DNA of 64,000 nt from Polyangia bacterium (GCA_035548155.1 DASZUD010000022.1:23399-87398); one strand, 5' to 3'; shown: positions 1-62,299, counted from the first letter of the stretch. Program-made: numbers and translations. Notes: generated by a model not told the origin, from the letters alone.

Positions 1-102
1 GTAGAACTGATTGACGCCCGCCACGACCAGCACGGGCTCGGGCGCCGGCGCGGGGCCCCCCTGCACGGTGATGTCCTGCGATGTGAAGTCGGTGGCGGTC
101 AT
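1..102 (-). CDS. urtE: Urea ABC transporter ATP-binding protein UrtE, N-terminal fragment only (gene continues beyond the window start)
   Basis: Minus-strand translation from the ATG at 102-100 gives MTATDFTSQDITVQGGPAPAPEPVLVVAGVNQFY, which is typical of the UrtE/LivF N-terminus. The start overlaps the urtD stop by 4 bp. Confidence 0.55.
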   Translation of the reverse strand, partial: MTATDFTSQDITVQGGPAPAPEPVLVVAGVNQFY

Positions 103-830
103 GTCCCGAGATACACCTCGATGACGCGCGGGTTCTTCTGGATGATGTCCATGGGGCCCTCGGCCAGCACACGGCCTTCGTGAAGCACCGTCACGTTGCG
201 CGCGATGCTGCGCACGAACTCCATGTCGTGCTCGACGACGACGACCGTGTGCTTGCCCGCGAGGCTGCGGAACAGCTCCGCCGTGCGCTCCATCTCCGGC
301 TGGGTCATGCCGGCGACCGGCTCGTCGATGAACAGCACCTTCGGGTTCTGCGCGAGCAGCATGCCGATCTCGAGCCACTGCTTCTGGCCGTGCGACAAGA
401 GCCCTGCCTGCCGATCGCGCTGGCCCGCAAGCCCGATCGTCTCGAGCACCTCGTCGATGCGCTCCCGATCGGCCTTCGACAGCCGCGCGAACAGGCTGTG
501 AAACACGCCCTTTCGGCCCTGGAGCGCCAGCTCGCAGTTCTCGAACACCGAGTGCCCCTGGAACACCGTCGGTCGCTGAAACTTCCGCCCGATGCCCAGC
601 CCCGCGATCTCGCACTCGGACATGCGCGTCAGGTTCTGCAGCCGGCTCTCGAGGAAGACCGATCCTTCGTCGGGCTTCGTCTTGCCCGTGATGACGTCCA
701 TCAGCGTCGTCTTGCCGGCGCCGTTCGGACCGATGATGCAGCGAAGCTCGCCGCGGTCGAGCAGGATCGTCACGTCATCGAGCGCCTTGAAGCCGTCGAA
801 GCTGACCGTGAGGTTCTCGGCCCACAGCAT
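99..830 (-). CDS. urtD: Urea ABC transporter ATP-binding protein UrtD (LivG-like)
   Basis: Begins MLWAENLTVSFDGFKALDDVTILL, has Walker A GPNGAGKTT and signature LSHGQKQWLEIG. It sits in urtABCDE order. The long 639-aa ORF reaching upstream of the ATG at 830 is an artefact of the frame. Confidence 0.85.
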   Translation of the reverse strand: MLWAENLTVSFDGFKALDDVTILLDRGELRCIIGPNGAGKTTLMDVITGKTKPDEGSVFLESRLQNLTRMSECEIAGLGIGRKFQRPTVFQGHSVFENCELALQGRKGVFHSLFARLSKADRERIDEVLETIGLAGQRDRQAGLLSHGQKQWLEIGMLLAQNPKVLFIDEPVAGMTQPEMERTAELFRSLAGKHTVVVVEHDMEFVRSIARNVTVLHEGRVLAEGPMDIIQKNPRVIEVYLGT

Positions 831-919
831 GATGGGCGGCACCGCCGGCCGGGGGAACGTGTCGTCGCTGTGACCGACACCCGCGTTCGGCTGCAGCGCC
901 TCGGACGTCTCGGCCACGG

Positions 920-2062
920 TCACGCGCCCTCCAGCTGCTTCTGCGGCTCTTGCGGCGCCGGCCGCGCGGGCGTCACCGCCGGCGCGTGGGTGCGCCTCCG
1001 GGCGAGCCACGCCGTCAGCGGCGCCGCCGCGCCGACGATCCCCTTCGGCAGGAACAGCGTCACGAGCACGAACATGCCGCCCAGCGCGTACAGCCACGCC
1101 GACGGGAACGCCGCGGTCAGCCAGCTCTTCGCGCCGTTGACCAGCCACGCGCCCAGCAGCGCGCCCGTCAACGTGCCGCGCCCGCCGACGGCCACCCAGA
1201 TCGCCATCTCGATCGAGTTCGAGGGCTGCATCTCGCTGGGGTTGATGATGCCGACCTGCGGGACGTACAACGCGCCCGCGAGCGCGCACAGCACGGCCGA
1301 GAGCGTCCACACGAAGAGCTTGTAGTTCGTGGACTCGTAGCCGCAAAAGCGCGTCTTGAGCTCGGCGTCGCGCAGCGCCGTCAGGACGCGCCCGAGCTTG
1401 CTGGTCACGATGAACCGGCACAGCAAGTAGGTGCCCCCCAGCGCGCCCGCCGAGAAGAAGTACAGCATCAGCTTCGTCTGCGGCGCCTGCAGCGGCCAGC
1501 CCACGATGCGCTTGAAGTCCGTGAGGCCGTTGTTGCCGCCGAAGCCCGTGGCGTTCTGGAAGAAGAGCAGCATCGCCGCGTAGGTGAGCGCCTGCGTGAC
1601 GATCGAGAGGTACACGCCCTTGATGCGCGAACGGAACGTGAGCCACCCGAAGACGAGCGCCAGCAGCCCGGGCGCCAGCAGCAGCATCACCACGGCGAAC
1701 CCGAAGTTCTGGAAGCCGTGCCAGTACCAGGGCAGCTCCTTCCAGTCGAGGAACACCATGAAGTCCGGCAACTGGCTGCGGTACACGCCCTCGCCCGCGA
1801 TGGCGCGCATGAGGTACATGCCCATGCCGTAGCCGCCCAGCGCGAAAAAGAGGCCGTGGCCCAGGCTGAGGATGCCGGCGTATCCCCACAAGAGGTCCAT
1901 CGCCAGCGCGGCGATGCCGAAGCAGAGAAACTTGCCGAGCAGCGGGACCAGATAGGCCGGCGCGACGGCCGGCACGACGGCCGCGATGACGACGGCGAAC
2001 GCCGCGGCGCCGAGCCACCCCCGGCGCGAGTGCATCCCGGCGAGGCGCGCGAGCACGCTCAT
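920..2062 (-). CDS. urtC: Urea ABC transporter permease UrtC
   Basis: 380-aa LivM-like membrane protein with several hydrophobic segments. It lies between urtB and urtD and overlaps the urtB stop by 4 bp. Confidence 0.85.
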   Translation of the reverse strand: MSVLARLAGMHSRRGWLGAAAFAVVIAAVVPAVAPAYLVPLLGKFLCFGIAALAMDLLWGYAGILSLGHGLFFALGGYGMGMYLMRAIAGEGVYRSQLPDFMVFLDWKELPWYWHGFQNFGFAVVMLLLAPGLLALVFGWLTFRSRIKGVYLSIVTQALTYAAMLLFFQNATGFGGNNGLTDFKRIVGWPLQAPQTKLMLYFFSAGALGGTYLLCRFIVTSKLGRVLTALRDAELKTRFCGYESTNYKLFVWTLSAVLCALAGALYVPQVGIINPSEMQPSNSIEMAIWVAVGGRGTLTGALLGAWLVNGAKSWLTAAFPSAWLYALGGMFVLVTLFLPKGIVGAAAPLTAWLARRRTHAPAVTPARPAPQEPQKQLEGA

Positions 2063-3708
2063 GCCTCCACCCGGCCCTTGATGGCGAACAGGCCCTGCGG
2101 CCGTCGCTGGATGAAAAGGATGATGAACGTCAGCACGGCGATCTTTCCGAGGACGGCGCCCGCGAGGGGCTCGAGGAACTTGTTGAGGACGCCGAGGCCC
2201 AGCGCCGCCGCGACGGCGCCCGCGAGGCGACCCACGCCGCCCAGGACGACGACCATGAACGAATCGATGACGTACGTCTGGCCGAGCTCAGGCCCGACGT
2301 TCGAGAGCTGCGAGAGCGCGACGCCCCCCAACCCCGCGATGCCCGACCCGAGACCGAACATCCACATGTCGATGCGCTTGGTCGAGATGCCCATGCACGA
2401 CGCCATGGCGCGGTTCTGCGTCACGGCACGCACGTAGAGGCCGAGGCGCGTCTTCTGCAGCAGGAACCACACGCCCGCGGCGACGACGATCACGAAGGCG
2501 ATCACACCGACGCGGCTCCACGGCAGCACCAGACCGTGCGTCAGCTCGATGCCGCCCGCGAGCCAGTCCGGGTTCGCGACGGCGACGTTCTGCGCGCCGA
2601 AGATGAGGCGCACCGTCTGGATGAGTCCGAGGCTGATGCCCCACGTCGCGAGCAACGTCTCGAGCGGACGCCCGTAGAGGTGCTTGATGACGGTGCGCTC
2701 GAGCAGCATGCCCACCGCCATCGTCACCGCGAAGGCGACGGGGATCGCCGCGAGCAAGTACCAGCGGAAGGCACCCGGCAGGTGCGCCTGAAAGAAGCTC
2801 TGCACGGCGTACGTCGAGTACGCGCCCAGCATCAGCATCTCGCCGTGCGCCATGTTGATGACGCCCAGCAGCCCGAAGGTCACGGCGAGGCCCAGCGCCG
2901 CGAACAGCAGCACGCTCGCCAGCGACAGGCCGTGGATCAAGCTGCCGACGACGCTGACGAGGCGCTGCTGCCCGAGGATCCCGTTGACCACGTCCTGGGC
3001 AGCGGAGCGCACGCGCGCGTCGGGTTCTACGAACGCACCCTGCTCCGTCTTCGAGACCATGTGCTGCGCCGCCGCGAGGAACTCGTCGTTGCCGAGCTTC
3101 TTGATGACCGCGAGCGCCGCGATGCGCGCATCCGCGCTGGGGCTCTGCAGGTCGACGCGCGCGACGGCCAACGACAGCGCGTCACGCACCTTCGCGTCCT
3201 TTTCGCGATCGAGCGCCTTGTGCAGGAGGCTCGTCGCCTCTCCGCCGCCCCCCTTCGACAGCTCCTCCGCCGCCGCCAGCCGCTCCGCGGCGCTCGGCGA
3301 GCCGAGCCGCAACTGCGCGAGCACGGGCGCTGCGACGCGCCGGATGTCGTTCGAGACGTCGACCTCTTTCAAAGGTCTCGGCGCGTTGACCACCGCCAAG
3401 GTCAGCGGGTCCTTCGCATCGTGCGTCTTCGATTCCCAGATGTACGGCTTGCCGTCGGCACCGACGCGCAAGCGATCGTCGCAGAGAGCATCCAGCGCCG
3501 GCCACGCGCGCGCATCGTCGAGCGTGCCGAGCTTGCGGATGCTGTCTTCGACCTTCTCTTCGGACGACGCCGCCAACCCGGCGACGGCGTCTTCAAGCGC
3601 CCCGGCGTGAGCGGCCGAACTCGACAACAAGACCAGCAGCACGCTCGCCCCCGAAAGAGCCGCTCGTCTGGCCGTCGTCCTTCCGCTCACGCCGGGTGCC
3701 TCCGTCAC
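2059..3708 (-). CDS. urtB: Urea ABC transporter permease UrtB with a roughly 230-aa N-terminal extension that carries a signal peptide
   Basis: The C-terminal 300 aa form a LivH-like permease (LGLAVTFGLLGVINMAHGEM...). The N-terminus has a signal-like segment followed by a helical, HEAT-like region. Confidence 0.8.
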   Translation of the reverse strand: MTEAPGVSGRTTARRAALSGASVLLVLLSSSAAHAGALEDAVAGLAASSEEKVEDSIRKLGTLDDARAWPALDALCDDRLRVGADGKPYIWESKTHDAKDPLTLAVVNAPRPLKEVDVSNDIRRVAAPVLAQLRLGSPSAAERLAAAEELSKGGGGEATSLLHKALDREKDAKVRDALSLAVARVDLQSPSADARIAALAVIKKLGNDEFLAAAQHMVSKTEQGAFVEPDARVRSAAQDVVNGILGQQRLVSVVGSLIHGLSLASVLLFAALGLAVTFGLLGVINMAHGEMLMLGAYSTYAVQSFFQAHLPGAFRWYLLAAIPVAFAVTMAVGMLLERTVIKHLYGRPLETLLATWGISLGLIQTVRLIFGAQNVAVANPDWLAGGIELTHGLVLPWSRVGVIAFVIVVAAGVWFLLQKTRLGLYVRAVTQNRAMASCMGISTKRIDMWMFGLGSGIAGLGGVALSQLSNVGPELGQTYVIDSFMVVVLGGVGRLAGAVAAALGLGVLNKFLEPLAGAVLGKIAVLTFIILFIQRRPQGLFAIKGRVEA

Positions 3709-3768
3709 TTCAGTGTTCTCCTAGGTCCCATTAAGCTCTGATTACGTTTCGTGCGGGTTTCCAGCGCG

Positions 3769-5151
3769 TTACTTCGCTTCGGCGACGGCCGGCGCGCCGC
3801 CGAACTTGGCCGCCGTGCAGTTGCCGCACGCCCACGGGTACAGCCAGTTCGCGATCTTGCCCTTGTCGTCCGGGATGTACGGGCTCCACGCCTGCGCCTT
3901 GATCGGGCCGTCCGTCTTCCACACGACGTGGAACTGACCGTCCGCCTTGACCTCGCCGATGTAGACCGGCTTGTGCAGGTGGTGGTTCTCGGCGTCCATC
4001 TCGATGTCGAAGCCCGACGGCGACTTGAAGTGCTGGTACCCGATCGCCTGGCGGACGGCGTCGACGTTGGTCGTGTGCGCCTGCTCGACGGCCTGCGCCC
4101 ACATGTGGATGCCGATGTACGTGGCCTCCATCGGATCGTTGGTGACGCGCTTGTCGCCGCCCGGGAGGTTGTTCTTCTTCACGTATGCCATCCACTTGTC
4201 GACGAACGCCTTGTTGGTCGGGTTGTCGATCGACTCGAAGTAGTTCCAGGCCGCCAGCTGGCCCACGAGCGGCTTCGTGTCGATCCCGCGAAGCTCCTCC
4301 TCGCCGACCGAGAACGCGACCACGGGGATGTCCGTCGCCTTGATGCCCTGGTTGCCGAGCTCCTTGTAGAACGGCACGTTCGAGTCGCCGTTGATCGTCG
4401 AGACGACCGCCGTGCGCTTGCCGGCCGCGAACTTCTTGATGTCCGCGACGATCGTCTGGTAGTCGCTGTGGCCGAACGGCGTGTACTTCTCCATGATGTC
4501 GTCGTCGGCCACGCCCTTCGCGTGCAGGAAGTAGCGCAGGATCTTGTTCGTCGTGCGCGGGTAGACGTAGTCGGTGCCGAGGAGCACCCAGCGCTTGGCG
4601 CCGCCGCCCTTCTTGCCCATGAGGTACTCGACGGCCGGGATCGCCTGCTGGTTGGGCGCCGCGCCCGTGTAGAAGACGTTCCACGACGACTCTTCACCCT
4701 CGTACTGCACGGGGTAGAAGAGCAGCCCGTTGAGCTCCTCGTAGACGGGGAGGACCGACTTGCGCGAGACCGACGTCCAGCACCCGAAGGTCACGGCGAC
4801 CTTCTCCTTCTGGATGAGGTCGCGCGCCTTCTCGGCGAACAGCGGCCAGTTCGACGCCGGGTCGACGACCACCGGCTCGAGCTTCCGGCCGAGCACGCCG
4901 CCCGCCTCGTTGATCTCCTCGATCGTCATGAGCGCGACGTCCTTCAGCGACGTCTCGCTGATGGCCATCGTGCCCGACAGCGAGTGGAGGATGCCGACCT
5001 TGATCGGCCCCTTGTCGTCGGCGGGCGCCGACGCCGCCGGCGCGGCAGGCGCGGCCGGGGCCGCGGCCGGAGCGGGCTCCGCCGGCTTCGAGCACGCCGC
5101 GAAGGTCCCGAGCGACCCCGCGAGCAGAACACCACAGAAGGATTTGCGCAT
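3769..5151 (-). CDS. urtA: Urea ABC transporter substrate-binding lipoprotein UrtA
   Basis: Contains the UrtA motif VGILHSLSGTMAISE. It has a lipobox (LGTFAAC) followed by a Pro/Ala-rich linker. A GGGGAGG ribosome-binding site precedes the ATG at 5151, and the stop is TAA at 3769. Confidence 0.85.
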   Translation of the reverse strand: MRKSFCGVLLAGSLGTFAACSKPAEPAPAAAPAAPAAPAASAPADDKGPIKVGILHSLSGTMAISETSLKDVALMTIEEINEAGGVLGRKLEPVVVDPASNWPLFAEKARDLIQKEKVAVTFGCWTSVSRKSVLPVYEELNGLLFYPVQYEGEESSWNVFYTGAAPNQQAIPAVEYLMGKKGGGAKRWVLLGTDYVYPRTTNKILRYFLHAKGVADDDIMEKYTPFGHSDYQTIVADIKKFAAGKRTAVVSTINGDSNVPFYKELGNQGIKATDIPVVAFSVGEEELRGIDTKPLVGQLAAWNYFESIDNPTNKAFVDKWMAYVKKNNLPGGDKRVTNDPMEATYIGIHMWAQAVEQAHTTNVDAVRQAIGYQHFKSPSGFDIEMDAENHHLHKPVYIGEVKADGQFHVVWKTDGPIKAQAWSPYIPDDKGKIANWLYPWACGNCTAAKFGGAPAVAEAK

Positions 5152-5154
5152 GGT

Positions 5155-5190
5155 CCTGAACCTCCCCTCGTTCACCTGAACCTCGTTCAG
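5155..5190. repeat. Direct repeat of CCTGAACCTC spaced 20 bp apart, with GTTCAG inverted elements, just upstream of the urtA start
   Basis: Seen directly: CCTGAACCTCccctcgttcaCCTGAACCTCGTTCAG. It abuts the urtA ribosome-binding site and lies in a locally AT-richer spacer between the porin and urtA. Confidence 0.5.
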
Positions 5191-5241
5191 TTTCCGGGTT
5201 GTAAATTGTTTGTTCATTGGTCGATTCGTCCGTTGTACGGC

Positions 5242-6471
5242 TTAGAAGAAGATCGCCTGCGCGTTGAGCCCGATGGCGTTGGCGGTCACGTCGCTCGCCA
5301 GCTTCGTGTAGCTGTACGTCGCGTTGAGGCGAAGCGCCGGGCCCTTGATGAGGTACGACACCGCGGCGTCGACGTTCCACGGGTTCGTCCCGGTGTTGCC
5401 CTTGATCGTCTCGCCCTGGTAGCGAACCATCGGCTGGATGTTGCCGATGCCGATCACGGGCGTCGCGTACGCCAGCGTCCCGTAATAGAAGTTGCTCACG
5501 CCGTTATCGAGCACGTTGTAGTGGTAGTAGGCGCCGCTGACCGAGAGGTACGAGCCCGGCGCGCCGAGCTTCTTCTCGAAGAGCCCGTCGACGTTGATGT
5601 CGGCGTAGTCCTTGTCGCCGCCCGCCATCGTCGAGCTGCCGTGCTTCTGGAACTGGCCGCCCACGTCGAAGCTCAGGATGTCCTTGTCGCCGAAGTACGT
5701 GCCGTTGCCCCAGAAGCCGGTCTCCTTGTCGAACAGCGAGATGCGCACGCGCCCCGAGTAGAGCGGGCTCGTGGCGATGTTGCCGTTGTCATAGACGCCC
5801 GCGAAGTACGACACCCTGCCGCCGGCGATGTCGCCCCAGACGTTGACGCCGTTGTTGCGCCCGAAGGGTCCTTCGGCAGGAGCGCCCACGGCCGGGGCGA
5901 AGAAGCCCGGGTAGTTCCAGGGGATCATGAAGAACGGGCCCGACGAGTTGTCGCGGTCGACCATGACCAAGAGGTGGCCCGCCCACACGTGAAACTCGTC
6001 CATCGGGTCGTAAGCGATGATCGCGTCCTCGACCTGCGCGGCCGCCGGACCGCCGGAGGTGCCGTAGTTCGCCATGTCGGCGTTGAGGTTCAGCGTGACG
6101 CTGAACTCCTTGGTGAGCTTGCCGCCGGCGTGAAGCTCGACATAGGCGCTGCTCATGTGCCAGTCGTTGAGCTTCTTCTGGTTCTGGCCCTGGAAGAGGC
6201 TGCCGACGCGCACCCAGGCGCCGACGTCGATCGGCGGCAGGACGTCCGGGCGGGTCGCCGGCATCGTCTCGGCGGCCGCCGGCGGCTTGGTCTCGACAGG
6301 CGCGGCCGCGGGCGGAGGAGGCGGCGGCGTCGCGGGAGCCTCGGCCGGCGGAGCGCCAGCCGGCGGCGCCGTGTCCTCTGCGAGCGCCGGAGCGGCCCAC
6401 AGCAACGCCCCCAACATCGCGCCCGTCGCCAGCTTCGTACAACGCGAACCGATAGTGCCGTCTCTCATCAT
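5242..6471 (-). CDS. Outer-membrane porin-like beta-barrel, possibly a urea or short-chain-amide porin
   Basis: Has a signal peptide and a Pro/Ala-rich linker. The body shows alternating beta-strand hydrophobicity and ends in the C-terminal aromatic IFF. It lies immediately upstream of urtA on the same strand. Confidence 0.55.
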   Translation of the reverse strand: MMRDGTIGSRCTKLATGAMLGALLWAAPALAEDTAPPAGAPPAEAPATPPPPPPAAAPVETKPPAAAETMPATRPDVLPPIDVGAWVRVGSLFQGQNQKKLNDWHMSSAYVELHAGGKLTKEFSVTLNLNADMANYGTSGGPAAAQVEDAIIAYDPMDEFHVWAGHLLVMVDRDNSSGPFFMIPWNYPGFFAPAVGAPAEGPFGRNNGVNVWGDIAGGRVSYFAGVYDNGNIATSPLYSGRVRISLFDKETGFWGNGTYFGDKDILSFDVGGQFQKHGSSTMAGGDKDYADINVDGLFEKKLGAPGSYLSVSGAYYHYNVLDNGVSNFYYGTLAYATPVIGIGNIQPMVRYQGETIKGNTGTNPWNVDAAVSYLIKGPALRLNATYSYTKLASDVTANAIGLNAQAIFF

Positions 6472-6732
6472 TTTTCCAGTCTCGTGATTGCCCCAGGCAC
6501 ACCTCGGGCGTACTGCGGTCGGAGCTCGACCGCCGGGCCACCCGGTGCGGGCCGTTCAACCGGCGGCCCGTTGCAATCACGTTCTGGGTCGGGCCGCCGA
6601 AACTTCCGTGTGAGTTGCGACCACCCTATCCGACAGAAGTAAACGGCAGATTTCCGAGTCGACTGACTTGCGTAACATTGGGTCCAAGACGACACGCGTG
6701 TTTCGGACCTCGCCGCGAGCCCCCACGGCTGT

Positions 6733-8544
6733 TCAAGTGAACGACTTGCGGAACGCGCGCCAGCCGCCGAACGAGGAGATCTCTCGCGCGCCGCCCAGCG
6801 CGTGCGGCTCGCACAAGAAACCGCTCACGCGCGCGCCGTCCTCCAGCTCCAGGCTGCCGATGCACAACGGCGCGGGCACGCGCGCCACGAACTCGCCGAA
6901 CGCGCGCGGATGCAGCGCCCACACCTCGACCTCGATCGCGGCGCCGCCCTCCCCCGCGCGCACGAGCCCCGGCTTCGGTGGCGTCGTGTTCGGCAGCGCG
7001 AACAGCTGATATCGCGGCGCCGTTCGGCACGCGCGCACCAGCACCCCGCCGACGCTCGTCAGCTGATGATTGAGCGGCTCGCCCGAGAGGTGGGCGCCCA
7101 CGACGCCGAGCCGCGGCCACGACGCGGGCGCCGAGGTGACCGGCGCGACGTCGGGGTGGCGGGCGGTCGTCGCGCCCAGCTGGTGACCGACGAGCGCGCG
7201 CTCGAAGCGGTCCGCGAAGCCCGCGAGCCGACCGTCCTCGCCCCAGCGCCCGATGAAGGTGATCCCCGCGGGCAGTCCGTCGGCGCGGAAGCCCGCGGGC
7301 ACGGCGACGGCCGACAGTCCCAGCAGGTTGACGAAATTCACGTACGCACCCAGCGTCGCGTTGAGCCGCAACGGGTCGGCCTCGACGGCCGCCACCGTGT
7401 AAATCGTGGGCGCCGTCGGCACGACGAGACAATCCACGCCCGCGAGCGCGCGCATCGCACGCCGGCCGAGCGCCAGGCGCTGCCGCAGGCCGGCGAACAC
7501 CGCGGCGCCGTCGCGCCGCCGCGCGCCCTCCAAGATCTCGCGGATCACGGGCAACAGCGCGCTGGGATCGCGCGCGAGCAGCGCGCCCGCGGCCTCGAGG
7601 CGCTCGGCGACGAAGGGGCCGTCGTACAGCAGCGCCGCCGTGTCCGCGAACGGCTGGAAGTCGATCGACACGGGGTCGCCGCCCAGCGCCCGCAGCCGCT
7701 CGAGCGCCTCGCCGAAGGCCCGCTCGGCCAGCGGGTCGCCGCAGAACCCGAGGTGGGGCGCCGCGGGCACGCCGAAGCGGAAACGCGCGGGCGCCGCCGC
7801 GACGGCGCTCGAGACGTCGTCGGCCTCGGCGCGCGAGTACGGATCCGCCTCGTCGTAGCCGCGCGCGAGCTCGGCGACGGCGGCGCCGTCGGCCGTGGTG
7901 AGCGCGAAGACCGACACGCAGTCGAGCGAGCGGCACGCGGGAACGACGCCGCGCGTGCTGAGCAGGCCGGGGCTCGGCTTGATGCCGGCGATGTTGTTGT
8001 AGCCCGCGGGCACGCGGCCCGACCCCGCCGTGTCCGTCCCCAGCGCGAAGCTGACGAGCCCCGTGGAGACGGCCACCGCCGATCCGGAGCTGGAGCCTCC
8101 GGGGATCATGCGTGCGTCGAAGGGATTCCGGGGAACCCCGTAAGGCGAGCGCGCGCCCACGAGCCCCGTCGCGAACTGGTCCAAATTCGTCTTGCCGACG
8201 GGGATCGCGCCCGCGGCGACGAGCTTCTTCACGACGGCGGCGTCCTCGACCGGCGTGAACGAAAACGCGGGGCACGCGGCCGTCGTCGGCAGGCCCGCGA
8301 CGTCGATGTTGTCCTTCACGGCGAACGGCACCCCGTAGAGGGGGAGCGCCTCGCCCGCCCGGCGGCGTTCCTCGACGGCGCGCGCGCGGGCCAGCAGCGC
8401 TTCGCGGCCGAACACCGAGATCCAGACCCCGTCGTCACCACGCCGAGCGATCCGCGCCAGCACGTCCTCGATCGTGTCCGTGGGCTTGGCGTTCCTGTCC
8501 GCGAGCGATTGCAGATCGAGGCTGGGATCCGTCACGCGTTCCAT
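6733..8544 (-). CDS. Allophanate hydrolase (AtzF-like amidase-signature enzyme with a C-terminal domain)
   Basis: Carries the amidase signature GGSSSGSAVAVSTGLVSFALGTDTAGSGRVPA and has the roughly 600-aa length expected. Its C-terminal 130-aa domain (VVGAHLSGEPLNHQL...) is like the allophanate hydrolase C-domain. I took MERVTDPSLDL as the start. Confidence 0.7.
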   Translation of the reverse strand: MERVTDPSLDLQSLADRNAKPTDTIEDVLARIARRGDDGVWISVFGREALLARARAVEERRRAGEALPLYGVPFAVKDNIDVAGLPTTAACPAFSFTPVEDAAVVKKLVAAGAIPVGKTNLDQFATGLVGARSPYGVPRNPFDARMIPGGSSSGSAVAVSTGLVSFALGTDTAGSGRVPAGYNNIAGIKPSPGLLSTRGVVPACRSLDCVSVFALTTADGAAVAELARGYDEADPYSRAEADDVSSAVAAAPARFRFGVPAAPHLGFCGDPLAERAFGEALERLRALGGDPVSIDFQPFADTAALLYDGPFVAERLEAAGALLARDPSALLPVIREILEGARRRDGAAVFAGLRQRLALGRRAMRALAGVDCLVVPTAPTIYTVAAVEADPLRLNATLGAYVNFVNLLGLSAVAVPAGFRADGLPAGITFIGRWGEDGRLAGFADRFERALVGHQLGATTARHPDVAPVTSAPASWPRLGVVGAHLSGEPLNHQLTSVGGVLVRACRTAPRYQLFALPNTTPPKPGLVRAGEGGAAIEVEVWALHPRAFGEFVARVPAPLCIGSLELEDGARVSGFLCEPHALGGAREISSFGGWRAFRKSFT

Positions 8545-8652
8545 CGTGCTTCGCACAATGCACGAACGCTTGCGCCGCGCGCACCTCCATTCGCTCACCG
8601 ACGGTCAAGTTACGAAGAATGGCGTCGTCGGAAAACTTCGAGAAACACGGCG
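8545..8652. promoter_or_regulatory. Divergent intergenic region of about 108 bp between the allophanate hydrolase and the BMP-type ABC operon; likely a shared regulatory region
   Basis: It is the only non-coding DNA between two divergently oriented units that are functionally linked. I did not verify any consensus promoter. Confidence 0.3.
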
Positions 8653-9771
8653 ATGTCTATAAACGGCCACATGACAAAGACCCGCTCCCTTGTTTCCGCC
8701 CTGTTAACGATGCTCGCCGTCAGCACGACGGCCACCCTGGCCCACGCCGCGCCGGGCATGACGGTCGGCTTCATCTACGTCGGACCGAAGACCGACTACG
8801 GCTACAACCAGGCCCACGCCCAGGGCGCCGCGGCCATCGCGAAGCTGCCCGGCATCAAGGTCCGCGAGGAGGAGATGGTCCCCGAGACGGTCGCCGTCCA
8901 GAAGACCATGGAGAGCATGATCAACCTCGACGGCGCGAAGATCCTCTTCCCGACGTCGTTCGGCTACTTCGATCCGCACATCCTCAAGGAGGCGGCCAAG
9001 AACAAGGACGTCACGTTCTTCCACTGTGGCGGCCTCTACCAGGAGGGCAAGCACCCCACGAACGTCGGCAGCTACTTCGGCTACATCGACGAAGCCGAGT
9101 ACATCTCGGGCATCGTCGCGGGCCTCACGTCGAAGAGCAACAAGCTGGGCTTCATCGCCGCAAAGCCGATCCCCCAGGTGCTCCGCAACATCAACTCGTT
9201 CACGCTGGGCGCGCGCTCCGTGAACCCGAAGGCCACGACGACCGTCATCTTCACGGGTGACTGGTCGATGCCCGTCAAGGAGGCCGAGGCCGCGACGAGC
9301 CTCATCGATCAGGGCGTGGACGTCCTGACGATGCACGTCGATTCGCCGAAGGTCATCGTCGAGACGGCCGAGCGCAAAGGCGTCTTCGTGACGGGCTACC
9401 ACGCGAATCAGGCGGCCCTGGCGCCCAAGGGTTACCTCACGGGCGCCGAGTGGAACTGGGCGAAGGTCTACACCGACTACATCACGATGGTTCAGGCGGG
9501 GAAGCCGTACCCGCACCTGCTGCGCGGCGGCCTCAAAGAGGGCTTCGTGAAGGTCTCGCCGTACGGCAAGGCCGTGTCGGCCGAGGCCAAGAAGAAGGCG
9601 GACGCCGCGAAGGCCAAGTTCATGGCCGGCACGATGGTGGTCTACAAGGGCCCGCTCAAGGACAACACGGGCAAGATCGTGATCCCCGCGGGCCAGGAGC
9701 AGAAGCAGACCGACATCAAGCTCGAGAGCATGGACTACCTCGTCGAGGGCGTCATCGGCAAGACGCACTGA
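8653..9771 (+). CDS. BMP-family (PnrA/Med-like) ABC transporter substrate-binding lipoprotein
   Basis: Begins MSINGHMTKTRSLVSALLTMLAVSTTATLA (signal peptide). The BMP fold is suggested by GFIYVGPKTDYGYNQAH, DVTFFHCGG and FTGDWS motifs. Confidence 0.8.
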   Translation: MSINGHMTKTRSLVSALLTMLAVSTTATLAHAAPGMTVGFIYVGPKTDYGYNQAHAQGAAAIAKLPGIKVREEEMVPETVAVQKTMESMINLDGAKILFPTSFGYFDPHILKEAAKNKDVTFFHCGGLYQEGKHPTNVGSYFGYIDEAEYISGIVAGLTSKSNKLGFIAAKPIPQVLRNINSFTLGARSVNPKATTTVIFTGDWSMPVKEAEAATSLIDQGVDVLTMHVDSPKVIVETAERKGVFVTGYHANQAALAPKGYLTGAEWNWAKVYTDYITMVQAGKPYPHLLRGGLKEGFVKVSPYGKAVSAEAKKKADAAKAKFMAGTMVVYKGPLKDNTGKIVIPAGQEQKQTDIKLESMDYLVEGVIGKTH

Positions 9772-9800
9772 TCCGCTGACATCCACCTGAGGAGGACAAC

Positions 9801-10979
9801 TTGAGCCTCGGCGCAAGCGTCGAATCGACACAGGGCCAGGCGGCCGCTTCGGTGGCCACGGTCTCGCCCGTCGCGCCCGCGACGGCGGTCAAGGTCGCAC
9901 CCATCGCCGAGGTTCACGCGCCGCTCGCGGGGCGCATCGTGGGCGCGCTCGCCGCGCCGACGATCGCCATCCTCGCGGCGCTGCTCCTCTTCGGAGTCTT
10001 CATCGCCTGCACCGGCCGAAACCCCGTGGGCGTCTATTACCAGATGTACCGCGGGTCGTTCGGGACCTGGTTCTCGTTCCAGAACACGCTGCTGCGCGCC
10101 GCGCCCCTGATGCTGACGGCGCTGGCGACGGCGCTGCCGCTGCGCCTCGGGCTGGTCGTGCTCGGCGGAGAAGGCGCGATGGTCATCGGCGGCCTCTCGG
10201 CCGCGGCCGCCGCGCTCGTGGCGCAGCACCACGGCCCCACGGGCATCAAGCTGGCGATGCTGGCGGCGGGCGCCATCGTGGGCGGCCTTTGGATGGCGTC
10301 GGCCGGCGCGCTGCGCGCCTACCGCGGCGTCAACGAGACGATCGGCACGCTGCTGCTCAATTACATCGCGATCGCGCTCCTCAACCACATCGTCGAGGGG
10401 CCGCTGCGCGACCCCGCCAGCCTCAACAAGCCCTCGACGCCGCCCATCGGCGACGACAACATGCTCGGCAACATCCCCGGCCTCGACTGCCATTGGGGCC
10501 TGGTCTTCGGGCTCATCGCGTGCGTGGCGACGTGGGTGCTCATGAACCGCACGACGTTCGGCTTCGCCGCCCGCATGGTGGGCGGCAACGTGCGCGCCGC
10601 CATGCTGAACGGCCTCCCCGTCGGGCGGCTGTTCGTGATCGTCACGGCGATCGGGGGCGCGTGCGCCGGCCTCGCGGGCGCCGTCGAGGTCGCGGCCATC
10701 CACGGCACGGCCAACGCCTCGCTGGTCACGGGCTACGGCTACACGGGCGTGCTCGTGGCGTTCATCGCGCGCGGCAACCCGCTGGCGGTCGTGCCGGTGG
10801 CGTTGCTTCTCGGGGGCATCGGCGCCAGCGGCGGGCTGCTCCAGCGCGTGTTCGAGCTGCCCGACGCCACGGTCAACGTGCTGCAGGGCATCCTCTTCAT
10901 CTGCATCCTCTTCTCCGAGACGTTCAACGGGCGGCAGCCGGGGTTCCTGCGCCGCGCCCGCACGACGGGAGCGACCTGA
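9801..10979 (+). CDS. ABC transporter permease (BMP/nucleoside-type, YufP/RnsC-like)
   Basis: 392-aa polytopic membrane protein. An AGGAGG ribosome-binding site sits 5 nt upstream of the TTG start, and the stop overlaps the next ATG as ATGA. Confidence 0.75.
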   Translation: MSLGASVESTQGQAAASVATVSPVAPATAVKVAPIAEVHAPLAGRIVGALAAPTIAILAALLLFGVFIACTGRNPVGVYYQMYRGSFGTWFSFQNTLLRAAPLMLTALATALPLRLGLVVLGGEGAMVIGGLSAAAAALVAQHHGPTGIKLAMLAAGAIVGGLWMASAGALRAYRGVNETIGTLLLNYIAIALLNHIVEGPLRDPASLNKPSTPPIGDDNMLGNIPGLDCHWGLVFGLIACVATWVLMNRTTFGFAARMVGGNVRAAMLNGLPVGRLFVIVTAIGGACAGLAGAVEVAAIHGTANASLVTGYGYTGVLVAFIARGNPLAVVPVALLLGGIGASGGLLQRVFELPDATVNVLQGILFICILFSETFNGRQPGFLRRARTTGAT

Positions 10980-11899
10980 TGGCCGACGGGGGCGTCTCCA
11001 GCGTCGCGCTCGCCGTGCTCGGCGGCGCCATCCGCATCAGCACGCCGTTCCTCTTCGTGAGCCTCGGCGAGTGCCTCACCGAGAAGAGCGGCCGCGTGAA
11101 CCTCGGCCTCGAGGGCACGCTGGTCATGGGCGCGATGGGGGCGTACGGCGTCTCGTACCTCTCCGGCTCGCCGTGGCTCGGCGTGCTGGCGGCCGGCGCG
11201 CTGGGCGTCGTGCTGGGCGCGCTGCACGCGTGGCTCTGCAGCCGGCCGCGCGTCAACGACGTCGCCGTCGGCATCGCGCTCATGCTCTTCGGAGTGGGGC
11301 TGGCCTTCTTCCTGGGCAAGCCGCTCATCGGGCCCACGGCGCCGCACCTGCCCGCGATCCCGCTCGGCTTCTGGAGCTCTTCGCCGCAGGTGCGGTCGGC
11401 GCTGCAGCTCAACGTGCTGTTCGTCGTGGGCCTGGCCCTGGCGGGCGTGGTGTTGTTCGTCCTCAACCGCACGCGCTGGGGGCTCATTCTCCGCACCGTC
11501 GGCGAGAGCGCCGATTCGGCGCGCGCCATGGGCTACGACGTCAACAGCGTGCGGCTGCGCGCCACGATGGCGGGCGGCTTTCTCGCGGGCGTGGGCGGCT
11601 CGTTCCTCTCGCTCTTCTACCCCGGCAGCTGGAACGAGGGCCTCTCCAGCGGTCAGGGGCTCATGGCCGTCGCGCTGGTGATCTTCGCGCGCTGGGATCC
11701 CATCCGCTGCCTCTGGGCCTCGCTGCTGTTCGGGGGCGCGAGCGCGCTGGGACCCGCGCTGCAGTCGGTGGGGATCACCTCCGGCTACTACCTCTTCAAC
11801 GCCGCGCCCTACGCGCTGACGCTCGCGATCATCATCGCGACCAGCTCGCGCGATCGGGCGCTCATTGGACAACCCGCAGAGCTGCGGACTGCCAGATGA
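10979..11899 (+). CDS. ABC transporter permease (BMP/nucleoside-type, YufQ/RnsD-like)
   Basis: Begins MADGGVSSVALAVLGGAIRISTPFLFVSLGECLTEKSG and is a polytopic membrane protein. Its start is translationally coupled to the preceding permease. Confidence 0.8.
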   Translation: MADGGVSSVALAVLGGAIRISTPFLFVSLGECLTEKSGRVNLGLEGTLVMGAMGAYGVSYLSGSPWLGVLAAGALGVVLGALHAWLCSRPRVNDVAVGIALMLFGVGLAFFLGKPLIGPTAPHLPAIPLGFWSSSPQVRSALQLNVLFVVGLALAGVVLFVLNRTRWGLILRTVGESADSARAMGYDVNSVRLRATMAGGFLAGVGGSFLSLFYPGSWNEGLSSGQGLMAVALVIFARWDPIRCLWASLLFGGASALGPALQSVGITSGYYLFNAAPYALTLAIIIATSSRDRALIGQPAELRTAR

Positions 11900-11918
11900 C
11901 CAGGAGGTGATGCCCCCC

Positions 11919-12625
11919 ATGACGAAGAAGAGCCCCGATCTCCGCTACGTGGCCGCCGAGCCCTACCCCTGGCCGTGGAACGGCGAGCTGCGCCCCAACA
12001 ACACGGCGCTCATCGTCATCGACATGCAGACCGACTTCTGCGGCGAAGGCGGCTACATCGCGCAGCTCGGCTACGACATCTCGCTCACGCGCGAGGCCAT
12101 CGGTCCCATCAAGAGGCTGCTCGAGCACGTGCGCGGCAAGGGCTACCGCATCATCCACACGCGCGAGGGGCACCGCCCCGATCTGTCCGACCTGCCGGCC
12201 AACAAGCGCTGGCGCTCGCGCCAGACCTACGGCAACAAGGACATGGGCATCGGCGACATGGGCCCGAAGGGCCGCATCCTCGTGCGAGGCGAGCCGGGCT
12301 GGGACATCATCCCGGAGCTCGCGCCGGCGCCGGGCGAGATCGTCATCGACAAGCCGGGCAAGGGATCGTTCTGCGCGACGGACCTCGAGCTCATCTTGCG
12401 CCAGCAAGGGATCGCGAACCTCGTCCTGACCGGGATCACCACGGACGTGTGCGTTCACACGACGATGCGCGAGGCGAACGACCGCGGCTTCGAGTGCCTG
12501 ATGCTCGAGGACTGCTGCCGCGCCACGGACCCGGGCAACCACGCGGCCGCCGTGAAGATGATCAAGATGCAGAACGGCGTCTTCGGCGCGGTCTCGCGCT
12601 CGAAGGCGTTCATCGAGGCGATCCT

Positions 12626-12629
<4 letters not shown>
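11919..12629 (+). CDS. Isochorismatase-like cysteine hydrolase (biuret/triuret/guanylurea-hydrolase-like amidohydrolase)
   Basis: Has IVIDMQTDF (Asp35), IVIDKPGKG (Lys145) and TGITTDVCVHTT (Cys178). An AGGAGG ribosome-binding site lies upstream. Other in-frame starts are possible at 11910 and 11865. Confidence 0.8.
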
Positions 12630-14158
<1,529 letters not shown>

Positions 14159-14235
14159 GACCGAAACATCATTGACAATTCCCTGCCCCGCTTGGCCGCG
14201 GACGCGATCCGTGCGATTGCTGCCGCAGGTGTTCG

Positions 14236-14586
14236 ATGAATGAACCTCGCCTCGTCTATCCCGACCTCCTCGCCCGCGCGAAATCGCCTGATTTTCAATG
14301 GACCCCCATGCGGCCAGGCATCGAGATCCACCGCATCTACGAGGATCCTTCGGGGCCCAGCGCGGCGTTGCTTCGTTACGCGCCCGGTGCGACGCTGCCC
14401 CGGCACTCGCACCCCGGCTATGAGCACATCACCGTCCTCGAGGGCTCGCAGGTCGACGAGCGCGGCACCTACGCCGCGCCTTGCTTCATCGTCAACCCTC
14501 CCGGCACCAGCCACGGCGTCACCAGCCCCGACGGGTGCCTGGTCCTCGTCGTCTGGCATCGCCCGGTCGAATTTGAGCAGCGCTGA
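14236..14586 (+). CDS. Cupin-domain protein (ChrR-like cupin)
   Basis: 116 aa with the motif HSHPGYEHITVLEGS and a possible metal-ligand stretch PPGTSHGV. Confidence 0.55.
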   Translation: MNEPRLVYPDLLARAKSPDFQWTPMRPGIEIHRIYEDPSGPSAALLRYAPGATLPRHSHPGYEHITVLEGSQVDERGTYAAPCFIVNPPGTSHGVTSPDGCLVLVVWHRPVEFEQR

Positions 14587-14590
14587 GGCC

Positions 14591-15451
14591 GTGGCCGGCG
14601 ACACGCACGCCGGCTGGCGCGCGCGCCTCGAGCTGGGGTTCGTGCGCGAGGGCGAATCGACGCGGCTCGGCCACCGGGCGCACGTCGGCCCGCTGGCCGT
14701 GCAGCGGCCCTTCTTCCCCGAAGGCCCGGGCGTCTGCCACGTCTACCTCCTGCACCCGCCCGGCGGCATCGTGGGCGGCGATCGTCTGCAGATCGACGTG
14801 CGTGTGGCCGAAGGCGCGCACGCGCTCGTGACGACGCCGGCCGCGACGAAGGTGTACCGCACGGCGGGACCCGGCGCGTCGCAAGAGTGTACGCTCGCCG
14901 TCGCGCCCGGCGCGACGCTGGAGTGGCTGCCGCAGGAGGCGATCGTCTACGACGGCGCGGACGTCTCGCTCACGACGCGCGTCCGCCTCGGCGCTGGCGC
15001 GCGGTTCCTCGGCGTCGACGTCCTGTGCTTCGGGCTGCCCGCGCGCCGCGACGGCCGCTTTCTGCGCGGGCGCTGCAAGCAGTCGGTCGAGCTGTGGCAC
15101 GGCCCGCGTCCCGTCGCGCTCGAGCGCGGCCGCTTCGACGGAGACGGCGCGGTCCACGCCGCCGGCTGGGGCCTCGCGGGCGCGCCCGTGCTCGGCACCT
15201 TCTTCGCCTCGCCCGCCCCCGCGGCGTGCGACGACCTCCTCGACGCCGCCCGCGCCCGCGCCGCCGCGCTGCCGGCCGGCGATCTCGGCGCGGCCACCGT
15301 GCTGGGCCGCGGCGACGCGAGCGCGCTCGTGTGCCGCTACGTCGGGGCCTCCGCCGAGCGCGCCAGCACCTTCTTGCGCGCCGTCTGGGCCGACGCGCGC
15401 GCGGCCCTCCTCGGCCGCGCCCCTGCTTTCCCCCGCATCTGGGCCACCTGA
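14591..15451 (+). CDS. ureD: Urease accessory protein UreD
   Basis: UreD-like sequence ([10 protein letters not shown]...[15 protein letters not shown]) in the correct position before ureA. The GTG start follows the cupin stop by 5 bp. Confidence 0.7.
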
Positions 15452-15488
15452 CCCTAAGAGAACAGAGAGAACAGATGGAGCCGTCGCG

Positions 15489-16132
15489 ATGGAGCTGACC
15501 CCACGAGAGAAGGACAAGCTGCTGCTGTTCACCGCGGCGCTGGTCGCCGAGCGCCGCCGCGCGCGCGGCGGGAAGCTGAACTACCCCGAGGCCGTCGCGC
15601 TGATCTCGGCCGAGATCCTCGAGGGGGCGCGCGACGGCAAGACCGTGGCCGAGCTGATGTCGCTGGGCACGAAGGTGCTGCGCGCCGACGAGGTCATGGA
15701 CGGCGTCGCCGAGCTCATCACCGAGGTGCAGGTCGAGGCCACCTTCCCCGACGGCACGAAGCTGGTGACGGTGCACAACCCGATTCCCCCCACACCGGGC
15801 GAGGTGCCGATCGGGGGCGTCGTGCCGGCCCCCGGCGCCATCACGATCAACGCCCACCGCCCCACCGTCACGCTCGAGGTCTCGAACACGGGCGACCGCC
15901 CCATCCAGGTCGGCTCGCACTACCACTTCGCCGAGACGAACCCGGCGCTGAAGTTCGATCGCGCGAGCGCGCGCGGCTTCCGCCTCGACATCCCGGCCGG
16001 CACGGCCGTTCGCTTCGAGCCGGGCGCGACGCGCACGGTGACGCTGGTCGCCTACGCCGGCGATCGCATCGTGCAGGGCTTCCGCGGCGAGGTGATGGGC
16101 GCCCTCGACGGCGACGAGCCGAGGGGGAATTC

Positions 16133-16136
<4 letters not shown>
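15489..16136 (+). CDS. ureAB: Urease gamma-beta fusion subunit (UreA fused to UreB)
   Basis: Starts [23 protein letters not shown] (UreA) and continues with no stop into the UreB-like stretch [24 protein letters not shown]. Total length is 215 aa. Confidence 0.85.
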
Positions 16137-17839
<1,703 letters not shown>

Positions 17840-17850
17840 CGGGAGAGACG

Positions 17851-18354
17851 ATGTTGCACCTGACCGAGCTCCTTACCGCGGGCACGCCCACGGGAACCGC
17901 GACGCTGACGCTGGACGAGCGGCGCCGCAGCCGGCTGCGCCTCACGCTGGACGACGGCCGCGAGGCGGCGCTGCTGCTGCCGCGCGGCTCGGCGCTGCGC
18001 GAAGGCGATCTGCTGCGCGCCGACGAGGGCGACGTCATCGTCGTGCGCGCGGCCTCCGAGTCGCTGTCCATGGCCAGCACGACCGACGCGCACACGCTCT
18101 TGCGCGGCGCGTACCACCTCGGCAATCGCCACGTCCCCGTGCAGATCGGCGACGGCTGGCTCGCGTACGAGCACGATCACGTGCTGGACGACATGGTGCG
18201 CGGGCTCGGGCTCACCGTCGAGGCGCGGCGCGCGCCCTTCGAGCCGGAAGGCGGGGCGTTCCGGCACGAGGGCAACGGCCATGCGCACTCGCGCGGCGAA
18301 GCGGACCACGACCACCACCATCACCATCACGGGGGCAGTCATCGCCACTCCTGA
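17851..18354 (+). CDS. ureE: Urease accessory protein UreE with a His-rich tail
   Basis: Begins MLHLTELL and ends in the His-rich C-terminus HDHHHHHHGGSHRHS. Confidence 0.8.
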   Translation: MLHLTELLTAGTPTGTATLTLDERRRSRLRLTLDDGREAALLLPRGSALREGDLLRADEGDVIVVRAASESLSMASTTDAHTLLRGAYHLGNRHVPVQIGDGWLAYEHDHVLDDMVRGLGLTVEARRAPFEPEGGAFRHEGNGHAHSRGEADHDHHHHHHGGSHRHS

Positions 18355-19039
18355 GCTACTGACGGCGGGCCCGCTGCTGCGCCTCCTGCACCTGTGCAGC
18401 CCCGCCCTGCCCATCGGCGCGTTCGCGTACTCCCAGGGCCTCGAGCCCGCGACGAGCGCCGGCTGGGTGCGCGACGAGGAGACGGCGCGCGCGTGGATCG
18501 TCGGCATCCTCGAATCGCAGCTCGCGACGCTGGACCTGGCCGTGCTGGCGCGCCTCTATGCGGCGTGGGGCGACGACGACGGGATCGAAGCGCCCACCGT
18601 CGCCGAGTGGAGCGCCTTCCTGCTCGCGTCGCGCCCCTCCGCCGAGCTGCAAGCCGAGGAGCGTCACCTGGGCGGCGCGCTGGCGCGCCTCGTCGCGGGG
18701 CTCGGGATCCCCGAAGCCTCCTCGTGGACGATGCGCGACGAGACGACGTACGCCGCCGTCTTCGCGCTCGCGGCGCGACGATGGGACGTCCCGCTGCGCG
18801 CGGCCGCCCAGGGGTTCGCGTTCGCGTGGGCCGAGGCGCAGGTCAGCGCCGCCGTGCGCGTCATCCCGCTGGGACAAAGCGCGGGCCAGCGCATACTGGC
18901 GGCGGCGGCGGCCGTCATCCCGGCCGCCGTCGAGCGCGCCCTCTCGCTGCCCGCCGACGAGCTCGGCGCCAGCTCCCCTCGCCTCGCCGTCGCGAGCGCC
19001 GCGCACGAGCACCAGTACTCGCGACTCTTCCGCTCCTGA
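18281..19039 (+). CDS. ureF: Urease accessory protein UreF (start uncertain)
   Basis: Contains LLRLLHLCSPALPIGAFAYSQGLE. The only in-frame ATG, at 18281, overlaps ureE by 74 nt, so the real start may be a non-canonical codon further downstream. Confidence 0.65.
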   Translation: MRTRAAKRTTTTTITITGAVIATPELLTAGPLLRLLHLCSPALPIGAFAYSQGLEPATSAGWVRDEETARAWIVGILESQLATLDLAVLARLYAAWGDDDGIEAPTVAEWSAFLLASRPSAELQAEERHLGGALARLVAGLGIPEASSWTMRDETTYAAVFALAARRWDVPLRAAAQGFAFAWAEAQVSAAVRVIPLGQSAGQRILAAAAAVIPAAVERALSLPADELGASSPRLAVASAAHEHQYSRLFRS

Positions 19040-19066
19040 TCGCCACCCCACGAGGAGACCTCGAAC

Positions 19067-19702
19067 ATGGACATCGCCAAGTCACACCGCACCGCGCGCG
19101 CCCCGCTCCGCCTCGGCGTCGCGGGCCCCGTCGGCTCGGGCAAGACGGCCCTCGTCGACGCGCTCTGCAAGCGCCTGCGCGACCAGTTCAACATCGCCGT
19201 CGTGACGAACGACATCTACACGAAGGAGGACGCGCAGTTCCTCATGCGCTCCGGCGCCCTGTCCGTCGACCGCATCGTGGGCGTCGAGACCGGCGGCTGC
19301 CCCCACACCGCCATCCGCGAGGACGCCTCGATCAACCTCGCGGCCGTCGACGAGATGAACGCGCGCCACCCGGGCCTCGACATGGTCATCATCGAGAGCG
19401 GCGGCGACAACCTGGCCGCCACGTTCAGCCCGGAGCTGGCCGATCTGTGCATTTACGTGATCGACGTCGCGGGCGGCGACAAGATCCCGCGCAAAGGCGG
19501 CCCGGGCATCACGAAGTCCGATCTCCTGGTCATCAACAAGACCGATCTCGCGCCGCACGTGGGCGCGTCGCTCGAGGTCATGGATCGCGACGCCCGCAAG
19601 CAGCGCGGGGAGCGGCCGTTCGTGTTCACCAGCCTCAAGGCCAAGGAAGGCGTCGAGCCCGTGGCCCAGTTCGTGATCCGCGCGGGCCTGCTGGGCGCGT
19701 AG
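19067..19702 (+). CDS. ureG: Urease accessory GTPase UreG
   Basis: Has the P-loop GPVGSGKT plus ETGGCPH and the UreG G4 motif NKTD. Confidence 0.9.
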
Positions 19703-61600: not shown

Positions 61601-61633
61601 GTCCTTCCCTCCTTGCCGACTTACGTTTGGGAG

Positions 61634-62299
61634 ATGCGCGTCGATCGTTCGAAAGATGCGTTGCTGATCGTCGACGTCCAGCGTGATTTCTTGCCGGGCG
61701 GCGCGCTGGCCGTCGCCGAGGGCGATCAGATCCTGCGCGGGCTCGCGAAGGTCACGGGGCTCTTCGAGACGGTGGTGGCCACGCAAGACTTTCACCCGCG
61801 CGGGCACGTGTCGTTCGCGTCGTCGCACCCCGGGCGCGGCCCGCTCGAGACCGTCCCCGTCCATGGCGTCCCGCAGGAGCTCTGGCCCGACCACTGCGTC
61901 GCGGGGACGCCGGGCGCCGCGCTGGCGCCCGAGGTGCCCGAAGACGCGCTGACGCTGATCCTGCGCAAGGGGACGCGCCGGCACATCGATTCGTACAGCG
62001 CCTTCCGCGAACAGGTGGGCCCCGACGGCCGGCGAACACCCACGGGCCTCGCGGCTTGGCTGCGCGCGCGCGGCGTCTCGCGCGTCTTCGTCGTCGGCCT
62101 GGCCCGCAACTACTGCGTGCGCGCGACGGCCGTCGATGCCGTCAACGAGGGCTTCGAGACCGTCGTCGTCGAGGACCTGACCAAACCCGTGGAGCCCCGG
62201 CGGCGCGCCGAGACCGACGAGGCCTGGCGCGAGGCGGGCGTGCGCGTCGTCTGCGCCCGCGACCTGTCCGGCGACGCCCGAGCGAAGAGCGCACGCTGA
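61634..62299 (+). CDS. pncA: Nicotinamidase/pyrazinamidase
   Basis: LLIVDVQRDF, QDFHP, DSYSAF and the NYCV Cys motif. An isochorismatase-fold enzyme. Confidence 0.8.
   Translation: MRVDRSKDALLIVDVQRDFLPGGALAVAEGDQILRGLAKVTGLFETVVATQDFHPRGHVSFASSHPGRGPLETVPVHGVPQELWPDHCVAGTPGAALAPEVPEDALTLILRKGTRRHIDSYSAFREQVGPDGRRTPTGLAAWLRARGVSRVFVVGLARNYCVRATAVDAVNEGFETVVVEDLTKPVEPRRRAETDEAWREAGVRVVCARDLSGDARAKSAR

Follow-up and report, generated by a model that had tools for sequence, protein, structure and literature searches.

In a stretch of 64,000 nucleotides from a Polyangia bacterium (GCA_035548155.1, DASZUD010000022.1:23399-87398; the whole stretch is called the window), positions 6,733 to 14,586 carry a gene cluster that is probably a nitrogen-scavenging module for the import and degradation of biuret (carbamoylurea). 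In the proposed mechanism, a periplasmic substrate-binding protein (SBP) of the BMP type would capture a ligand that appears to be biuret, and two permeases together with an ATPase containing two nucleotide-binding domains (NBDs) would carry it into the cell. The cytoplasmic biuret hydrolase BiuH, encoded midway along the transporter mRNA and coupled in its translation to the ATPase gene, would then convert biuret to allophanate and NH3, and the divergently transcribed allophanate hydrolase AtzF would convert allophanate to 2 CO2 and 2 NH3. Together with the urea importer urt and the urease ure, the module makes up a single putative island for scavenging nitrogen of the urea family. The enzyme steps, from biuret via allophanate to NH3 and CO2, are predicted with high confidence; specificity of the transporter for biuret seems fairly likely.

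The hydrolase gene (11919-12629, plus strand; 236 amino acids) encodes an isochorismatase-like cysteine hydrolase, which scored 396.5 bits on NF050097, the BiuH equivalog model of NCBIfam (cutoff 370). As a control, a TrtA-like paralogue from another locus (L001) gave 236.3 bits on the same model, under the cutoff. In phmmer searches against PDB, the window hydrolase matched BiuH of Rhizobium leguminosarum (6AZO; E=1.8e-113, 381 bits, 72.6% identity) and BiuH of Herbaspirillum (6XJM; E=1.2e-91, 310 bits), followed at a distance by TrtA (6XIX; E=9e-65, 222 bits) and RutB (E=4e-26, 95 bits). Nicotinamidases, isochorismatases and N-carbamoylsarcosine amidases scored much below the BiuH structures. 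The catalytic triad of BiuH is Asp36/Lys142/Cys175, and biuret is contacted by Lys145, Ile170, Thr171, Val174, Gln215, Phe41, and Tyr47; Gln38, Phe148, Thr151, Gly169, and Thr179 are further conserved residues (Esquirol et al. 2018; PMC5806882). All of these residues are identical in the window hydrolase, as aligned to 6AZO by phmmer. In relatives that carry both paralogues, the window hydrolase corresponds to the BiuH position in the operon, not to the TrtA position. The window hydrolase is thus assigned, on its sequence, as the putative orthologue of biuret hydrolase BiuH (EC 3.5.1.84).

It should be mentioned that near-identical active sites of isochorismatase-like hydrolases can take different substrates, and that TrtA and BiuH have contact residues in common (PMC7948467). 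An enzyme acting on another ureide, namely triuret, guanylurea, ureidoacrylate or N-carbamoylsarcosine, is nevertheless highly improbable, in view of the wide differences between the above scores for BiuH and those for TrtA and RutB, and of the BiuH-type operon position.

The divergent amidase gene is on the minus strand, at 6733-8544 in the source gene call (603 amino acids), with the start of the longest open reading frame (ORF) at 8598. Its product exceeded the cutoff of the equivalog model TIGR02713 (765.5 bits; cutoff 511) and scored 804 bits on NF006043. It has both an Amidase domain (Pfam, 289.5 bits) and a C-terminal AH_C domain (164.2 bits), and is predicted to be the allophanate hydrolase AtzF. 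The first-pass annotation of this DNA had proposed a ureide (biuret-like) hydrolase feeding AtzF. This proposal is borne out by both equivalog models, and the hydrolase ranks closest to BiuH, far above TrtA and RutB and still further above nicotinamidase and isochorismatase.

The window locus seems to be a minimal, biuret-only form of a cluster that elsewhere also serves triuret or cyanuric acid, because TrtA, AtzD, formamidase, the TrtB/AtzH-like gene and the GntR regulator are missing from the window. No AtzD, formamidase or GntR homologue was found by tblastn anywhere in the 64 kb, and no purine catabolic genes were found in or near the cluster by Pfam, NCBIfam, and tblastn. When TrtA-like and AtzH-like queries were run by tblastn over the whole window, the only matches were BiuH itself and, at 61.6 kb, an ORF with 22-23% identity. 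The latter is a distant isochorismatase-like ORF (61613-62299, plus strand; about 23% identity to BiuH), far from the cluster.

The G+C content of the window is about 70%, and genes were called by the third-position GC score (GC3) and verified with Pfam, NCBIfam, and the gene calls of the source assembly. By all of these, the five operon genes and the divergent AtzF-like amidase are real and lie where the first-pass annotation had placed them. On the plus strand, the SBP gene (8653-9771; 372 amino acids; Pfam Bmp, 136.8 bits) is followed by the genes for permease 1 (9801-10979; 392 amino acids; BPD_transp_2, 122.8 bits; TTG start, in agreement with the source gene call), permease 2 (10979-11899; 306 amino acids; BPD_transp_2, 130.2 bits), BiuH, and the fused two-NBD ATPase (12626-14158; 510 amino acids; two stretches matching Pfam ABC_tran). 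The interval up to 14586 had been listed as a five-gene operon; this list was incomplete, as a sixth gene, for a stand-alone ChrR-like cupin (14236-14586, plus strand; 116 amino acids; Cupin_7, 66.7 bits), is also present. As had been noted, the unit lies between the urt and ure clusters: urtD-C-B-A occupies 99-5217 (minus strand) and ureD-(AB)-C-E-F-G occupies about 14573-19702 (plus strand), as judged by Pfam and NCBIfam.

The operon had also been described as a chain of overlapping start and stop codons, and this description stands in part. At the BiuH/ATPase junction, the sequence GTGA at 12626-12629 joins the stop codon of biuH with the GTG start of the ATPase gene. The permease 1/permease 2 junction also overlaps, by 1 nt, but its sequence is TGATG (stop at 10977-10979, ATG at 10979-10981) rather than the reported ATGA. 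The other two junctions are gaps, of 29 nt between the SBP and permease 1 genes and of 19 nt between the permease 2 and biuH genes. The former contains AGGAGG 5 nt ahead of the TTG start of permease 1, and the latter contains AGGAGG at 11902-11907; both motifs are predicted to be ribosome-binding sites. The spacing between the ATPase and cupin genes is 77 nt. A scan of positions 6400-15000 for sigma-70 promoters and intrinsic terminators gave nothing above shuffled expectation, inspection of the atzF-SBP intergenic region by eye gave no match to the sigma-54 -24/-12 pattern, and an Rfam scan of the whole window gave no riboswitch (a guanidine riboswitch, for example) near the biuH cluster.

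The arrangement is widely conserved. When one genome per species was scanned, a close relative of BiuH was present in at least 594 genomes, and the best 80 loci were mapped by tblastn with 14 marker proteins. In 76 of the 80 species-level loci, biuH directly adjoins the transporter genes and lies in the slot between those for permease 2 and the ATPase. Because it recurs in this way among related genomes, the arrangement is far from chance, and the synteny that the first-pass annotation wanted checked is conserved. The cluster was found in Alpha-, Beta- and Gammaproteobacteria, Myxococcota, Phycisphaerales, Methylomirabilota/Rokubacteria, and Solirubrobacteraceae. The SBP of the window is identical to a protein (P0001) in a Polyangia-type metagenome-assembled genome (MAG), GCA_964596565.1 (CAZQUU010000314.1), in which the neighbouring gene calls agree in length and spacing; the closest relatives of the window are MAGs of Polyangia and Myxococcales, and Sorangium. 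In the Myxococcota loci L007, L008, L032, L050, and L052, urt and/or ure adjoin the cluster, and the order in L008 is that of the window.

BiuH is the sole enzyme present in every cluster. A TrtA-like paralogue is often located 3' of the ATPase gene, followed by the cupin gene or an AtzH/HpxZ-like gene, and then by atzF and a GntR regulator. Of the 69 clusters with enough downstream DNA, 17 have neither TrtA nor the cupin nor the AtzH-like gene. In several loci (L002, L004, L018, L021, L024, L028, L092, and others), formamidase (NF009803, 587 bits) and/or AtzD shares the position of BiuH between permease 2 and the ATPase, which suggests that this slot of the transporter operon is a hot spot where catabolic genes are inserted recurrently.

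One such locus, L092, is on an IncFII/IncR plasmid, pENT-784 of Enterobacter cloacae (CP009856.1), from a sink drain. Its order is AtzF-SBP-P1-P2-AmiF-BiuH-ATPase-second cysteine hydrolase-GntR, between transposase genes. An SBP of the same identity (64.4%) is also plasmid-encoded in Klebsiella aerogenes from water and in clinical isolates of Enterobacter kobei and E. hormaechei.

The SBP, the two BPD_transp_2 permeases and the fused double-NBD ATPase make up the full set of components of a predicted BMP/PnrA-family ATP-binding cassette (ABC) importer. The ATPase is similar over its full length to two-NBD ATPases of CUT2/BMP-type importers. The SBP carries a signal peptide of the Sec type with AHA at its end and no lipobox Cys, and its mature part would span residues of about 33-372. 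Its best matches in PDB were AtzT (6PI5; E=8.7e-63, 38% identity) and a Brucella protein (3S99; 36% identity). Of 12 matches in PDB with E<=0.01, none is a chain named PnrA, and the nearest hits related to nucleosides, Borrelia BmpA/BmpD, gave E values of 7e-8 to 5e-6. AtzT, encoded on plasmid pADP-1, binds guanine at 110 nM and 2-hydroxyatrazine at 2.2 uM, and also binds ammeline (PMC6834077), and 3S99 was modelled with adenine. The nearest characterised BMP relatives of the SBP appear to be purine-base binders rather than nucleoside binders of the PnrA type.

The residues of AtzT in contact with the ligand, among which Glu165 forms a hydrogen bond with the purine or triazine, were taken from the published structure (PMC6834077) and mapped onto 74 biuH-linked SBPs and 5 non-linked relatives, the alignment having no gaps near these residues; AtzT numbering is used. 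The aromatic sandwich (Tyr/Trp45 and Trp194; Tyr51 and Trp204 in the window SBP), Ser97, Phe98, Asn169, His218, and Asp220 are kept in the biuH-linked SBPs. Glu165, in contrast, is replaced by Gln in 69 of the 74 (Gln175 in the window) and by Ser, Thr or Ile in the remaining five, whereas it is Glu or Asp in all five non-linked relatives. This means that the full purine-contact set of the AtzT/3S99 type (Tyr/Trp45, Ser97, Phe98, Glu165, Trp194, and Asn/His218-Asn/Asp220) is broken in the window SBP at Glu165. Other pocket changes specific to the clade are Tyr47 to Gln, Asp196 to Met/Leu, and Thr219 to Val. The window SBP thus resembles AtzT and 3S99 in the fold family (cluster B-I), the aromatic sandwich and positions 97, 98 and 169, but differs in positions 47, 196, and 219, and has Gln in place of the Glu165 via which guanine, adenine or 2-hydroxyatrazine is bound.

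The outgroup SBPs were drawn from a tblastn search of plasmids with the window SBP. Among the plasmid matches sampled, identity to the window SBP falls from >=50% to <=40%, with little between. Every inspected protein at >=50% identity is biuH-linked, including a 50.8% identical Allorhizobium protein; at <=40% identity, none of the four inspected is biuH-linked, and one of these (L091) is located among purine-catabolism genes. The biuH-linked SBPs are a clade of their own and share about 38% identity with AtzT.

The membership of the BMP family, the binding of guanine or adenine by the nearest solved relatives (PMC6834077), and the annotation of the same cassette as a nucleoside transporter in a pathway framed as use of purine degradation products (PMC12625717) would all fit a purine base or nucleoside importer, in which case BiuH and AtzF would merely clear biuret formed intracellularly by oxidative breakdown of purines or urate. 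This explanation is considered improbable. Glu165 is replaced throughout the biuH-linked clade and retained in the non-linked relatives; the SBP is as distant from AtzT and 3S99 as the above identities indicate; and the cluster lacks purine catabolic genes in its surroundings, while the L091 relative that does lie beside such genes has the Glu-type pocket.

Within the biuH-linked clade, the five SBPs with Ser, Thr or Ile at position 165 (L011, L026, L066, L069, and L088; about 51-56% identity to the window SBP) form a minority sub-lineage that also has Trp45 and His139. AtzD is present in two of these five loci. Another ligand preference is possible for this sub-lineage.

Several observations weigh against the assignment of biuret as the ligand and against the operon as drawn. 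The presence of AtzD, TrtA or formamidase in a cluster showed no association with the pocket residues of its SBP. Since the pocket signature is unchanged by the presence or absence of these enzymes, it cannot discriminate biuret from triuret or cyanuric acid. The retained aromatic sandwich is typical of purine or triazine binders, and the pocket could prefer a planar ring, for example cyanuric acid, or triuret, which is longer than biuret; TrtA or AtzD is encoded within the same operon in many relatives. In the literature reached, no publication was found that measures binding or uptake for this BMP clade or explicitly assigns biuret to it, in line with the first-pass statement that ureides had not been assigned to BMP transporters. 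The report that labels the cassette a nucleoside transporter, bmpA-nupABC, does not discuss the ligand (PMC12625717). As to the operon, co-transcription is inferred from gene spacing and overlapping codons, because the scans for promoters, terminators, and regulators came up empty, and the 77-nt gap before the cupin gene makes the cupin a less certain member of the operon.

An alternative would be a broad importer of planar ureides or triazines (cyanuric acid, triuret, biuret, and possibly formylurea), with biuret as one substrate or a minor one and with only the biuret branch of the chemistry kept in this genome. It would explain why relatives carry AtzD, TrtA-like hydrolases and formamidase in the same operon with no change in the pocket signature, and Tyr51 and Trp204 are retained as in AtzT, a binder of 2-hydroxyatrazine and ammeline (PMC6834077). 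However, such an importer is rather unlikely. BiuH is the only invariant enzyme, the 17 clusters mentioned above dispense with TrtA, cupin and AtzH-like gene, and import of cyanuric acid or triuret would be pointless in the window, from which AtzD and formamidase are missing. As BiuH is the only invariant enzymatic partner, the comparison points to biuret as the common ligand of the biuH-linked SBPs, and triuret or cyanuric acid may be co-substrates.

With biuret as the common ligand, a more specific proposal can be put forward tentatively. The biuH-linked BMP SBPs might be a dedicated biuret-binding clade, retuned from purine-base binders mainly by the change of Glu165 to Gln, with contributions from Y47Q, D196M/L, and T219V. 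The fixed placement of BiuH could then reflect functional, and possibly physical, coupling of uptake to hydrolysis, and the cupin would be an uncharacterised enzyme of the pathway. If this is true, it would be the first small-ureide (acyclic ureide) specificity shown for the BMP family. AtzT is an example of BMP proteins already tied to s-triazine and ureide catabolism.

The first-pass annotation had regarded the locus as a candidate new catabolic module. This is not the case: SBP/permease/permease/BiuH/ATPase is the standard context of BiuH, including at the R. leguminosarum locus, and has been published (PMC7948467, PMC12625717). The enzymology of BiuH, TrtA, and AtzF is established, and to this known cluster type the locus adds little. 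BiuH of R. leguminosarum bv. viciae 3841 has been characterised and crystallised (PDB 6AZO/6AZQ). The Rhizobium locus used for comparison, L002, belongs to bv. trifolii strain 4B and encodes a BiuH with 97.8% identity to 6AZO. It shares with the window the backbone of BMP SBP, two permeases, BiuH and two-NBD ATPase, followed by a cupin gene; BiuH is 72% and the SBP 62% identical, and the pocket signature is the same (Y-Q-Q-Q-L-H-D). It differs in that formamidase, AtzD and a TrtA paralogue stand among or behind the transporter genes, a GntR gene is divergent, and atzF is absent from the locus, whereas the window has the divergent atzF and the flanking urt and ure clusters.

The triuret/biuret cluster of Herbaspirillum comprises trtA, biuH, trtB, atzF, GntR, and an ABC cassette. 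For the characterised strain BH-1, an ABC transporter cassette was drawn with trtA, biuH, atzF, and GntR (Tassoulas et al. 2020, Supp. Fig. 1; PMC7948467). H. huttiense (L038), of the same genus, stands in for this strain. Its gene order, AtzF followed by SBP-P1-P2-BiuH-ATPase, matches that of the window (BiuH 75%, SBP 69% identical). Unlike the window, it has TrtA, an AtzH/HpxZ-like gene and GntR downstream, atzF is co-directional, and the cupin is absent. In a 2025 study of nitrifier MAGs, atzF was collocated with biuH, trtA, trtB and bmpA-nupABC, and a full urease cassette lay close by on the same contig (PMC12625717). The gene association, including the urease, is that of the window; the difference is that trtA is present, as is trtB in ammonia-oxidising bacteria, comammox being without trtB.

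The cupin has the motif HSHPGYEH...SH and shares 46% identity with the cupin that occupies the corresponding position in a biuH cluster of Mesorhizobium. Among the 69 loci, the cupin was found in 29 and the AtzH/HpxZ-like gene, which is probably TrtB, in 14, and the two never occur together (Fisher p=1.7e-4, not corrected for phylogeny). The cupin gene thus recurs in biuH clusters as a conserved accessory. Since it is also found in clusters without TrtA and AtzD, its product may be more than an analogue of carboxybiuret decarboxylase.

Urea fertiliser contains biuret and triuret as impurities, and both also arise when urate is oxidised; for this reason their uptake and mineralisation bear on nitrogen cycling in soil. 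Soil Polyangia appear to carry a stripped-down, biuret-only cluster wired into a urea island. Databases still label the transporter "nucleoside" or "simple sugar", and the pocket change specific to the clade offers a concrete hypothesis for re-annotation.

Three features of the surrounding DNA should be added. A porin-like ORF (5242-6471, minus strand; Porin_O_P, 28.6 bits; ExtI-like, 57 bits, below cutoff) separates urtA from atzF and could encode a channel through which urea or small amides cross the outer membrane. The only Rfam match in the window was to the 5_ureB_sRNA model at 16282-16568 on the minus strand (82 bits; gathering score 40), antisense within ureC; it probably reflects conserved urease coding sequence and not a true small RNA in a myxobacterium. 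A single fused gene at 15489-16136 on the plus strand encodes both the gamma and the beta subunit of urease (NF009671, bifunctional gamma/beta, 312 bits).

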